64,000 nucleotides of DNA from Armatimonadota bacterium. Its GTDB lineage: Bacteria > Armatimonadota > Fimbriimonadia > Fimbriimonadales > GBS-DC. Location: contig JBBIML010000007.1 of NCBI GenBank assembly GCA_037444405.1, forward strand, positions 96,001-160,000, in the 5' to 3' direction. The notes below the pieces were generated by a model that saw nothing but the letters and a program-made list of their open reading frames with translations, had not been told where the DNA came from and did no database searches. Positions 35,790 to 39,371 of the stretch are shown here, piece by piece (within the stretch, counting starts at the first letter, position 1; each line of letters begins with the position of its first letter). A program made the translations under genes and the position numbers.

Positions 35790-35874
35790 TGGTGCCCGGG
35801 GCGGGACTCGAACCCGCACGGGTTATCCCCAGAGGATTTTAAGTCCCCCGCGTCTGCCGTTCCGCCACCCGGGC
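35790..35874 (-). tRNA. tRNA-Leu (anticodon UAA), CCA encoded
   Basis: GCCCGGG-TGGCGGAACGGCAGACGC-GGGGA-CT-TAA-AA-TCCTC, long variable arm, GCGGG-TTCGAGT-CCCGC, CCCGGGC-ACCA. Confidence 0.97.
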
Positions 35875-35940: not shown

Positions 35941-36090
35941 AGGATACCCTATCGCTTTGTCGAATAGCCCACGCAGGCGGCTCATCTGTATCAATCGCCG
36001 CAGTTGCATGCGGATTAAGCAGGAATCGGCGATCCGCTGTCGAAGATCGTTCAACAGGAAGGCAATTAAGCAGGAATCGGCGTGTCGATA
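35941..36090 (+). promoter_or_regulatory. Tandem sigmaH-like promoters and an 18-bp direct repeat
   Basis: AGGA-N17-GAAT (35941/35962) and AGGA-N17-GAAG (36021/36042), both with TGTCGAA; ATTAAGCAGGAATCGGCG at 36014 and 36065. Confidence 0.55.
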
Positions 36091-36220: not shown

Positions 36221-36913
36221 ATGGTGGAGCGTCGCTGGAGTGCAGCTCAGATCGAGGCGACCCTGCGCGAGCTGAAAGGCGTGTGCGGAGCGCGTGTGGT
36301 GGCGGATGAAAAGGGTCTCATTCAGGAAATCCACCTGCTGGTGGAGGGGGATCGGAACCCGAAGCAGGTGGTGCGCGATGTCGAATCCGCCCTGATGGCG
36401 CACTTCGGCGTGCATATCGACCATCGCAAGGTGAGCGTGGCACAGAAAGGCGCAGGGCGTGGGTATACTCCCGCGCGATTGCGCTGGCTCGATTTGCAGA
36501 TTGTTCAGGAAGGCACGCGAGCGACCGCGACGGTGTTCGTGGAGCGGGGCGGTCAGGTCTATCGGGGTACGGCGTCCGGCGTGCGCGCCAGCACGCAACT
36601 CCCACGACTGGTCGCCACCGCCACCCTGCGCGCTGTTGAGTCGGCACACGGGCTACATGAGCGGTTCGGACTGGAAGATGTGTCGACCAACACGGTGCTG
36701 GCAGGGTATCCTGTGGCAGTGGTGCTGGTGAGCGCGGTGCGTGAGAACGGCGAGGACCTGCTGGTGGGCAGTGCGCTGGTGCGTCAGGATGTGTATCGAG
36801 CGATTGGGCTGGCAACTTTAGATGCGGTTAATCGGCGGGTGGTTGCTTTCCCCAGCGATTTTGAGCCGACGCCAGAGGCGGCGGTGCTGATGCAGGGACA
36901 AGTAACGGATTAG
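36221..36913 (+). CDS. Conserved hypothetical cytoplasmic protein
   Basis: RBS GGAGGT; 'IQEIHLL...RNPKQVVRDVESAL..FG..IDHRKVSVAQ', 'LLVGSALV', 'ATLDAVNRR'. Confidence 0.85.
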   Translation: MVERRWSAAQIEATLRELKGVCGARVVADEKGLIQEIHLLVEGDRNPKQVVRDVESALMAHFGVHIDHRKVSVAQKGAGRGYTPARLRWLDLQIVQEGTRATATVFVERGGQVYRGTASGVRASTQLPRLVATATLRAVESAHGLHERFGLEDVSTNTVLAGYPVAVVLVSAVRENGEDLLVGSALVRQDVYRAIGLATLDAVNRRVVAFPSDFEPTPEAAVLMQGQVTD

Positions 36914-36936: not shown

Positions 36937-37041
36937 CCACTTGGGGCGCATATCCCGCAGATGCGCCCTATCGGGCAGGGCGAGCGCAGAAGCGGAGCGG
37001 AACCGAGCGACGCATATTCTCGACACAGGAGGGAGCAGCTG

Positions 37042-37179
37042 ATGCGACGGTGGCTCGTTCTGATGGCTGCGCTCGTTGCGCTGATGGCGGTCGCCAGCGC
37101 GAAGAAGGTGTACTACCCGCACCGCTGGGATGACCCGCTGGAGGCGCAACCCAACACGGTGGTGTTGCCCACACCATAA
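37042..37179 (+). CDS. 45-aa secreted peptide precursor
   Basis: RBS AGGAGGGAG; MRRWLVLMAALVALMAVASA-KKVYYPHRWDDPLEAQPNTVVLPTP, with a basic n-region, hydrophobic h-region and A-S-A site. Confidence 0.75.
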   Translation: MRRWLVLMAALVALMAVASAKKVYYPHRWDDPLEAQPNTVVLPTP

Positions 37180-37283
37180 GGGGCACACTTGAAAGGATAG
37201 CGCGAAGCGCTTGCCCTGCCTGAAAGTGAACCCTCGTTCCCGGCGGCACTGGCTGCCGCCTATAGCCGCATCGGAAACGAACA

Positions 37284-38651
37284 ATGGCAATCGCGCACAG
37301 GAATCAGCTGCGGAGGCGGCACTGGCTCTGGAGTGGACTGCTTTCGGCAACGGCGATACTGATTCTGATGGCGGCGGGCAGCCCCATCCAGCAAGCAGGG
37401 CAACTGCCCCTGCTACTGGGGCTGGCAGCTGTCGCGCTGCTGGGTGAGCTGCTGCTGATCCGCTATCCGCTCCGCCACGGCTACACCGATCGCGGCATCT
37501 GGGTGAGCGTCAGCACGCCCATCGTGGCGGCGGTGATTTTGCTCTACGGTTGGGCGATGGGCGTGTGGCTCGATGCGGGCGTCACCTTCGGCGCAGGACT
37601 GCTCACCGCTCGGCTCAAACAGTCGCGCCTGCGCTGGGTGTGGCTCAACACGGCGCAGAGCGTGCTGTGCGCCGCTGCAGCCGGCATCTGTCCCATCGCT
37701 TTCCAGTACCTGTTAGATGGGTTCAGCGAGGCGCCTGCCGGCGTTTTTGCGAACACCCTCTTTGCTTCACCTGCCGTCGCTGTGCTGGCTCTGTTCACCA
37801 TCCTGGTTGTTTATAGCATGATCAATAACCTGCTGGTGTCGGTCACGGTGGCTCTGGCGGAGGGCGTGCGGTTTGGGTGGGTGTTGCGCGAGTCGCTGCT
37901 CGATTTGCCGCGCGAGACACTGCCGATGTTCCCGCTGAGCCTGCTGCTAATGGCGATGCTCCATCTATATGGGCTTACAGGTTCGCTGACCGTGCTGGCG
38001 CCCTATCTGGCGCTGCGCCAGGCGTTCATTCTCTCCACACGCCAGCATGAGCTGTATCATCAGACGATTCGCAGTCTGGGCTTTTTGATTCAGCGGGCGC
38101 ATCCGTACACTGGGGGGCATCTGCAGCGGGTGGCGCAGTGGGGTCGGCGTGTCGCCGAGCGGCTGGGGCTACCCCCCGAACGCTGTGAACTCATCTACGA
38201 AGCCGCGCTCCTGCACGACCTCGGCAAAACGGTGCTGGATGAACGAATCCTCAACAAACCGGGGCGACTGACCCCGCGCGAATGGGAGCAGGTGCAACGC
38301 CATCCGCAGCTGGGCGCGGAAATCCTCACCGATGTGCCGTTCCTGAACGCGATTGTGCCCTGGATTACCTATCACCATGAGCGCCCCGATGGCAAAGGCT
38401 ACCCGCACGGACTGAGAGGCGACCAGATTCCGCTGGAGGCACGGATTATCGCCGTCGTGGACGCCTTCGACGCGATGATTGGCGGCGAAGCGCCCAGTCA
38501 GCAGCGCCAGTATCGGCGCTCACTCACCATCCCCGAAGCGCTGAACGAGCTGCGGCGCGGCGCGGGCACGCAGTTCGACCCGCAGGTGGTGCAGGTGTTC
38601 GAGCAGGTGGTGCAGGAATGGTTGCCGTATCAGGAGGGGACGCGGAGGTAA
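37284..38651 (+). CDS. Multi-TM HD-GYP cyclic-dinucleotide phosphodiesterase
   Basis: Multi-TM N-terminus; 'HPYTGGHLQRV', 'LLHDLGK', 'HHERPDGKGYPHGL', 'VDAFDAM', 'RQYR', 'GTQFDP'. Confidence 0.92.
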   Translation: MAIAHRNQLRRRHWLWSGLLSATAILILMAAGSPIQQAGQLPLLLGLAAVALLGELLLIRYPLRHGYTDRGIWVSVSTPIVAAVILLYGWAMGVWLDAGVTFGAGLLTARLKQSRLRWVWLNTAQSVLCAAAAGICPIAFQYLLDGFSEAPAGVFANTLFASPAVAVLALFTILVVYSMINNLLVSVTVALAEGVRFGWVLRESLLDLPRETLPMFPLSLLLMAMLHLYGLTGSLTVLAPYLALRQAFILSTRQHELYHQTIRSLGFLIQRAHPYTGGHLQRVAQWGRRVAERLGLPPERCELIYEAALLHDLGKTVLDERILNKPGRLTPREWEQVQRHPQLGAEILTDVPFLNAIVPWITYHHERPDGKGYPHGLRGDQIPLEARIIAVVDAFDAMIGGEAPSQQRQYRRSLTIPEALNELRRGAGTQFDPQVVQVFEQVVQEWLPYQEGTRR

Positions 38652-38654
38652 GCG

Positions 38655-39371
38655 ATGGAGAACCTGTGGCTGGGTCTGGCAGTGGTGCTGGCTTCGATCG
38701 GTGCGCTGGGCTATTATGCTTTTATTTTTCTACCCGCCCAGCTCCATCGCTGGCACTGTCAGACCCTGCGGGCGTTCGCGAAGGTGATCGAGCTACGCAC
38801 CCAGGGTCGCTACGGGGACACCGAAACCATGGCGCAGTTAGCGCGGGCGGTCAGCGCGCGATTGGGGCTCGACGCGCAGGAACGCAAACGGCTGGAGCTA
38901 TCGGTCTACCTGCGCGACATCAGCATGGTGAGCCTGCCCTACGCGCTGCTGAATAAGACGACGCCCCTCTCACCGATGGAGCAGCTGACACTGATGCGGC
39001 ATGCGGAGATCAGCGCGGCGATGGTGGAGCAGATTCCGGGACTGAGTGCGGTGGCGCCGCTGGTGCGCCTGCATCATGTGAGTTATGCGCAGCAGCCCGA
39101 TGCCCCGCTGAGCGCGCACCTGCTGTCGGCGCTGTCAGACCTGATGGAGCAGGCTCAGCGGGAGGGCTATGAGGCGGCGTTGCGCGTGTTGCAGGCAGGT
39201 GCGGGCACGCGCTATCACCCCGCGGTTGTGCCGGCAATTGAGGCGGAGCTGCAGGCGCGCCCGCTGGAGAGCTGGGTGCCCCTACGGCGTTCCGCTGCCC
39301 TGTGGTTCGGGCTGATACTGTATCCGCTGAAAGATCTGTCGCGCCTGCTCATAGAATTCGCGCGGCACTAA
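38655..39371 (+). CDS. Single-TM degenerate HD-GYP-like protein
   Basis: N-terminal TM; HD replaced by 'LRDIS'; 'HHVSY' lacks the DGxGYP loop; 'AGTRYHP' remains. Confidence 0.8.
   Translation: MENLWLGLAVVLASIGALGYYAFIFLPAQLHRWHCQTLRAFAKVIELRTQGRYGDTETMAQLARAVSARLGLDAQERKRLELSVYLRDISMVSLPYALLNKTTPLSPMEQLTLMRHAEISAAMVEQIPGLSAVAPLVRLHHVSYAQQPDAPLSAHLLSALSDLMEQAQREGYEAALRVLQAGAGTRYHPAVVPAIEAELQARPLESWVPLRRSAALWFGLILYPLKDLSRLLIEFARH

Follow-up and report, generated by a model that had tools for sequence, protein, structure and literature searches.

A conserved micro-peptide gene inside a predicted RNA helix precedes a MASE9-type HD-GYP sensor in Armatimonadota

Introduction

MASE9 sensors are widespread, and the available part of 10.1101/2021.11.05.467447 proposes that the domain binds an as-yet unknown ligand within the membrane. 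One tested member gave no phenotype, possibly for want of signal; the available sections of PMC6205966, on HdgA and HdgB, suggest that activating signals were lacking in the tests described there. The window analyzed here (the whole stretch of 64,000 nucleotides from an Armatimonadota bacterium of the order Fimbriimonadales) holds a 45-codon ORF between a gene that we call up230 and a sensor of this type. An earlier note, made from the letters of the window, had described the ORF as an easily missed secreted peptide. Is it a gene, and does its product act on the neighboring sensor? We compared the locus with its relatives to address both questions.

Conservation of the 45-codon ORF

The ORF and its ribosome-binding site lie on the forward strand:

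37027..37035 (+): Shine-Dalgarno site AGGAGGGAG, six bases upstream of the ATG
37042..37179 (+): micro-peptide gene, 45 aa (translation and conservation in relatives)

We reproduced the earlier translation of the peptide and the spacing of its Shine-Dalgarno site, as well as the remark that the ORF tool shows the 45-aa frame solely within a 72-aa ORF beginning at 36961. The 72-aa call is spurious, because an in-frame stop closes its 27-codon upstream extension in 20/25 copies. An antisense frame was also rejected: it is open in 21/25 copies, yet the variation sits on third positions of the forward frame.

A search of relatives matched the peptide in 24/24 genomes of the same family (Armatimonadota, Fimbriimonadales), with matches at chance level outside the host family. 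Codon-level conservation, which the note had named as a check, speaks for a gene: the ORF is kept in 24/24 relatives under purifying selection (pN/pS of 0.20 for the whole ORF among family copies). The ATG stands behind a GGAGG-type site in 25/25 family copies, and variable columns over the first 32 codons number 18, 12 and 27 at the three codon positions (24 copies, L055 left out). Against the closest genome there are six differences, every one silent and at a third position. The gene is single-copy in the host genome. Gene callers annotate it in related genomes as a hypothetical protein; Pfam and NCBIfam hold no model for it (window and 88 family members scanned), and a protein atlas search with the peptide gave no usable match. 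Judged by its pattern of substitution, the 45-codon ORF is a real, selected gene.

Leader, core and extension

The peptide divides into three parts:

37042..37101 (+): leader, residues 1-20, with a basic start, an uncharged hydrophobic stretch and an A-x-A end
37102..37119 (+): conserved core KKVYYP, residues 21-26 (lowest of the pN/pS values below; in the shortest members the entire C-terminal part aligns with it)
37120..37176 (+): extension, with residues 27-32 conserved in the host family only and residues 33-45 variable

By part, pN/pS was 0.30 for the leader, 0.077 for residues 21-26 and 0.11 for residues 27-32. Signal peptidase I requires small residues at –3 and –1. With its basic N-region, a hydrophobic stretch and small residues at –3/–1, the peptide looks in sequence like a substrate of this enzyme, and the host genome has signal peptidase I genes. 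Two basic residues directly after a leader, as in KKVYYP, can hinder export, which speaks against an exported product. Across 25/25 family copies Ala18 and Ala20 are invariant, residue 19 varies and Lys21 is present. The signal-like leader and possible cut after Ala20 suggested previously are consistent with these data.

The proposed nine-residue core, KKVYYPHRW, held only in part. The equivalent of residues 21-25/26 is kept family-wide, whereas His27 is kept in just 15/25 family copies and many members end before the HRW part. Since the shortest members terminate 4-6 residues after the leader, the family-wide core corresponds to KKVYYP, and residues 21-26 are likely, on conservation, the active part. 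The idea of a trimmed tail agrees with residues 33-45, which vary in both sequence and length.

Genes around the ORF

Three genes accompany the ORF on the same strand:

36221..36913 (+): up230, a 230-aa soluble protein with a small N-terminal alpha/beta domain and a C-terminal domain like the LeuA/CimA regulatory domain (structure model, Foldseek)
37284..38651 (+): membrane HD-GYP protein, 455 aa, with a divergent MASE9-type sensor domain and an intact-looking phosphodiesterase domain (HD_5 E 3e-36)
38655..39371 (+): second HD-GYP protein, 238 aa, with one N-terminal hydrophobic segment (HD_5 E 2e-14)

up230, which marks the module in six phyla, matches no Pfam or NCBIfam model. The best Foldseek matches of its structure model (pLDDT 90.8) are LeuA/CimA regulatory domains (E 2e-5 to 9e-4), followed by dsRBD proteins; in the protein atlas it matched clusters without names and one that is labelled as a LeuA allosteric domain. 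On this model, up230 is a candidate RNA-binding regulator. Outside the window, a 475-codon frame of the host genome (G000:C16:34016-35440) encodes two CBS-like domains together with a GGDEF motif and an up230-type LeuA-regulatory domain. This fusion is a second tie of up230 to c-di-GMP, and up230 could pair with the CBS-GGDEF cyclase through the common domain type. Between up230 and a divergent tRNA-Leu(TAA) at 35790-35874 (–) lies an exact 18-base direct repeat (36014-36031 and 36065-36082), part of which is similar to a word that relatives keep in the promoter region of up230.

The 455-aa protein has no direct match to the Pfam MASE9 model, which is matched by 28/60 aligned sensor orthologues. 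Its N-terminal half scores 45.9 bits against a profile of 32 non-Armatimonadota orthologues, and the protein has 7 hydrophobic segments. It carries the HD, KPG, HHE..DG.GYP and RxYR motifs as defined in the available part of 10.1101/2021.11.05.467447, and is a predicted c-di-GMP phosphodiesterase and the likely receptor of the peptide. The 238-aa protein is degenerate (HD replaced by RD, GYP motif absent) and is, on these motifs, likely a non-catalytic partner. Some Armatimonadota sensors (6/60; L069, L071, L072 and related loci) have a rubredoxin-like insert inside the HD-GYP domain.

A peptide family in six phyla

We curated 109 copies of the peptide from Armatimonadota, Actinomycetota, Bacillota, Chloroflexota, Sumerlaeota and Atribacterota. 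Their plan, to which the window peptide conforms, is a leader of 19-21 residues ending small-small-Ala, then a core of 4-6 residues with an aromatic end. Leader length lies in this range in 105/109 copies (start codons chosen by hand), and an aromatic residue stands at +4 or +5 in 94/109. up230 is present in 59/251 Armatimonadota genomes; leaving aside the host genome, we fetched 40 of 58, and a family peptide follows up230 in 39/40 of these loci, with one doubtful. In two sister families, 4/4 loci carry it. A GTDB scan took 80 of 580 confirmed loci, of which 16 from the host family were left out and 64 analyzed; the peptide is present in 51/54 with enough DNA, one of the others being cut by an N gap and two lacking it. 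Four genomes marked as unpublished carry none of the claims made here. Within the host family, up230 lies upstream in 24/25 loci and the sensor downstream in 24/25, both misses being contig ends. At L261 and L263, two loci without up230, the sensor is preceded by a tandem pair of peptide genes that are identical or nearly so.

The family associated with the MASE9-HD-GYP module is undescribed and widespread, and the window carries a derived variant. Because the gene order is kept across six phyla, we consider some partnership of peptide and sensor at the protein level quite probable from comparative sequence evidence.

DUF5317 and the shape of the peptide

Many related loci have a DUF5317 gene after the HD-GYP genes, and in most of the phyla it forms part of the module. 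With the Pfam model and our own profile, we did not find DUF5317 in the host genome (98.9% complete); it is absent from 41/41 genomes of the host order searched and present in 33/58 other up230-positive genomes. A hydrophobic leader combined with a tail of ≤11 residues characterizes 27/27 peptides of DUF5317-positive genomes versus 1/41 of DUF5317-negative ones (that genome being 85% complete), by thresholds set post hoc and in a pattern that on the tree represents about five events, not 68 independent points. The negative group comprises the host clade, one lineage whose leaders are amphipathic and individual genomes in which the leader has decayed. In the DUF5317-less host clade, all 32 peptides have Lys at +1 (32/32) and tails of 14-27 residues. 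Three host-clade families group together in a quick tree (support 89), with f4 outside its sampling. Sister lineages that lack DUF5317 have Leu, Phe or Tyr at –3 in 6/7 cases, so a cut after Ala fits poorly there. At L063, L065, L067 and L084, the second HD-GYP gene is directly followed by the glycosyltransferase gene that in sister loci comes after DUF5317, an arrangement consistent with clean deletion of DUF5317.

Lineage f32 (L073, L074, L077, L080-L082) has neither DUF5317 nor the RNA helix described below, and its leaders are amphipathic and Cys-containing. It has lost the hydrophobic leader (hydropathy 0.6-1.5) but retains an aromatic-Pro core and the sensor, so the kept part is the core, not the membrane helix. 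In f32 the HD-GYP genes are followed by another membrane protein, weakly matching MauE, which might offer a substitute route of processing.

Asn and Asp motifs are invariant in DUF5317. Profile comparison with LspA (hhalign) gave 21% probability, covering both conserved Asp motifs, versus 0.2-2.4% for controls; single-sequence comparison gave 0.6%. The lipoprotein signal model is weakly matched by 8/88 leaders. DUF5317 has no match to solved structures by sequence, and its confident model gave no clear Foldseek match and no link to LspA by fold; in a wide structural alignment the best hit was a designed helical bundle (Z 8.0), with LspA not among the best 50 matches. A literature search that left most subscription journals outside its coverage found no description of DUF5317. 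It is a putative LspA-like aspartic peptidase, with peptidase activity a lead, not a result.

Core variation among relatives

We compared cores and leaders in pairs of loci at up230 identity 0.65-0.92. Core identity is 0.23 versus 0.68 for the leader in Actinomycetota (37 pairs), and 0.29 versus 0.61 in DUF5317-bearing Armatimonadota (30 pairs). In the host family (180 pairs) the relation is reversed, 0.94 versus 0.83, with a higher mean up230 identity (0.81 versus 0.70). Core-sensor covariation, measured over pairs that are not independent, gave a partial r of –0.24 in the host family and of 0.34 and 0.19 in the other groups. The variability in Actinomycetota and DUF5317-bearing Armatimonadota is, by analogy, like that of pheromone cores. 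The nearly frozen core disfavors a kin-specific pheromone in the host family, where a signal that is autocrine or common to genera is more likely.

Nine of the 64 GTDB contigs end within the peptide gene; read by eye, the break falls at the leader/core junction in five. Together with one N gap, these broken or gapped loci are L137, L140, L150, L151, L156, L159, L171, L172, L180 and L158. Breaks at the junction are what strains with a common leader and divergent sequence from the core on would produce; they can be read as strain variation or as coverage effects. As to paralogy, 3/5 genomes checked have one leader copy, and MASE9 was found in only 1/5.

Cleaved ligand or membrane subunit

The reading we prefer, although its chances stand about even, is that the gene encodes a ligand precursor, cut here by signal peptidase I, and that the adjacent MASE9-type sensor receives the ligand. 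The main competing account, which we hold to be rather unlikely, is that the product stays uncleaved and spans the membrane once, a micro-protein or tethered ligand whose docking on the MASE9 domain would set phosphodiesterase activity; elsewhere DUF5317 would remove or inactivate the peptide, and its loss here would have left a permanent subunit. The leader also suits a docking helix, with its fixed length, a 20-residue span that is aromatic at either end, purifying selection and Arg3, Trp4 and Met8 invariant in the host family. However, the same leader keeps Ala18-x-Ala20, with –3/–1 fixed and –2 free, in all family copies, as a cleaved substrate would. A core frozen in the host family also fits a subunit, but outside that family the core is hypervariable relative to the leader. 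Lys at +1 throughout the DUF5317-less clade and the poor –3 residues of sister lineages favor an uncut product, whereas f32 has core and sensor but no membrane-spanning leader to dock.

An RNA element around the ORF

The ORF lies inside a predicted RNA fold:

36942..36970 (+): short hairpin lying after up230 and before the RNA element (predicted fold; similar in most same-family copies)
36971..36987 (+): 5' arm of a long-range helix (predicted fold, covariation)
36991..37009 (+): AGCG repeat motif, AGCGGAGCG at 36991-36999 and another AGCG at 37006-37009
37207..37223 (+): 3' arm of the long-range helix

The helix 36971-36987 × 37207-37223 encloses the ORF (z –3.45). An ungapped-stem test, chosen after a weaker test of total duplex energy, found that the equivalent stem passes shuffling in 25/25 family copies and 73/108 overall, with no stem in f32 (0/6) or f9 (0/3); the duplex energy test, among the loci listed, was passed by 12/25 in the family, 1/16 in Actinomycetota and 1/14 in Bacillota. 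In the family alignment 94% of helix cells pair, versus 35-54% for slid controls, and 9/15 pairs show double changes. The Shine-Dalgarno site forms the 3' strand of a weak hairpin in most same-family copies (87.6% of cells paired). Rfam 15 gave no match for the leader or helix (window and 15 related loci), and no riboswitch was found in the window. At the Geosporobacter locus (L153:1687-2224), a raiA RNA and a c-di-GMP-I riboswitch lie about 2.3 kb upstream of up230.

The word AGCG[AG]AGC occurs upstream of 92/109 peptide genes and downstream of 0/109. Among 20 Actinomycetota DUF5317 loci, which are not independent, the motif precedes the sensor in 9/9 with up230 and in 0/6 sensor loci without it, while five have neither gene; among the up230-less sensor loci, up230 is missing from 3/5 genomes checked. 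Since the motif tracks up230, these counts suggest that up230 may be its reader. The host genome holds 43 AGCG clusters, so no regulon can be drawn from them.

Such an element could itself be the main function. The locus would then be a cis-acting RNA switch in which up230, or ribosomes on the ORF, open and close the helix and so control the sensor genes, the peptide being a monitoring or leader peptide. The conserved, doubly changed stem agrees with a switch, as does an in-frame ATG without a Shine-Dalgarno site 10-14 bases past the 3' arm in 16/24 family copies. In the window, though, the first in-frame ATG of the sensor is 60 bases past the arm, and many Bacillota and Actinomycetota sensors have their own Shine-Dalgarno site outside the helix. 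Pro runs can stall ribosomes, and Armatimonadota cores run into them, but non-Armatimonadota peptides lack a Pro run. Four Actinomycetota loci keep peptide, sensor and DUF5317 while motif and helix are absent, and the link of peptide shape to DUF5317 points to a protein-level role. We judge the switch improbable as the main function.

Type I toxin mRNAs combine a Shine-Dalgarno site in a hairpin with long-range pairing, as does this small hydrophobic peptide gene, but a membrane-damaging toxin or bacteriocin-like product silenced by 5'-3' pairing, with incidental neighbors, is very improbable given the fixed place before MASE9 sensors in six phyla, the single genomic copy and the lack of a toxin-family match among 88 members.

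Proposed mechanism

On the ligand-precursor reading, membrane insertion of the leader would be followed by a cut after Ala20, for which signal peptidase I is the likely enzyme in this DUF5317-less lineage. The cut would expose a core with Lys first, which may bind the sensor domain and alter c-di-GMP turnover; the tail past Pro26 would be trimmed or tolerated. In other lineages DUF5317 would handle the leader. After its loss the clade may have lengthened the tail, giving a precursor of 34-47 residues suited to housekeeping export. At the RNA level, up230 would bind the AGCG repeats and set peptide output, and the helix might let the peptide mRNA be processed or stabilized separately from the sensor mRNA.

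More tentatively, and with less probability than an even chance, these steps could belong to a wider system of peptide signaling with c-di-GMP output in Terrabacteria: RNA gated by up230 via AGCG repeats, an LspA-like cut by DUF5317 and sensing by MASE9. The peptidase would have been dropped once, in Fimbriimonadales and a sister lineage, and the precursor rebuilt as a signal peptidase I substrate with a fixed Lys-x-x-x-Tyr-Pro core. The locus is a natural experiment on DUF5317 loss, one that separates the core from its processing route.

Comparison with known systems

As far as the available parts of the published accounts go, the closest parallels are the MASE9-HD-GYP proteins of Thermotoga maritima (TM1467) and Streptomyces venezuelae (HdgA/HdgB), where a membrane sensor with an intact HD-GYP domain is likewise followed by a degenerate HD-GYP gene. 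The partner in the window has one hydrophobic segment, not six as in the HdgB type, and the window sensor scores below the Pfam MASE9 model. The word 'peptide' occurs 0 times in the available main text of 10.1101/2021.11.05.467447, and the hdgA/hdgB account in the available sections of PMC6205966 mentions no peptide, up230 or RNA element. In the literature covered, which excluded most subscription journals, we found no peptide controlling a c-di-GMP phosphodiesterase and no peptide partner of MASE9.

According to the available part of PMC4147580, the Phr, PapR and NprX peptides of RRNPP systems are similarly made as precursors of about 43-46 aa with an export signal, and the active part of NprX is internal to the C-terminal region. 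The PhrK model is weakly matched by 7/88 members through the leader (best E 0.004). In contrast to RRNPP receptors, which are cytoplasmic TPR proteins reached by re-import, the candidate here is an adjacent membrane c-di-GMP enzyme; no cytoplasmic TPR receptor adjoins the gene, whose neighbors are up230 and the membrane HD-GYP protein. Unlike in RRNPP propeptides, the core begins directly after the leader.

The agr system comprises a leader, a five-residue core with a hydrophobic end, a Pro/acidic tail, a multi-pass membrane sensor and a dedicated membrane peptidase. The module resembles AgrD/AgrB/AgrC in its leader, short core, Pro/acidic tail, multi-pass sensor and, in most lineages, a putative dedicated peptidase. 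It differs in that the ring-forming Cys/Ser/Thr is absent at core position 1, which is Lys21 throughout the family, and in that the output is HD-GYP, not a histidine kinase. The AgrD model matched none of 88 members, and AgrB was not found in the host genome.

LspA resembles the DUF5317 of related loci in that the Gly-x3-Asn, Asp and (Ser/Asn)-x-x-Asp motifs align in order, and many leaders end in a lipobox-like L-A-G; unlike LspA substrates, they have no Cys at the cut site. The host genome has one ordinary LspA alongside its lack of DUF5317.

A last comparison, by description, is with the CD1980.2 family of Clostridioides difficile, tiny membrane-associated proteins under RNA-level control that are outputs of c-di-GMP riboswitches (available part of PMC13724677), whereas the window peptide stands at the likely input of a phosphodiesterase. 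Besides the peptide, the locus draws attention to an RNA element that has no Rfam match, with up230 as its candidate protein reader. Overall, the family supplies short candidate peptides, of 5-12 residues, for MASE9 sensors.
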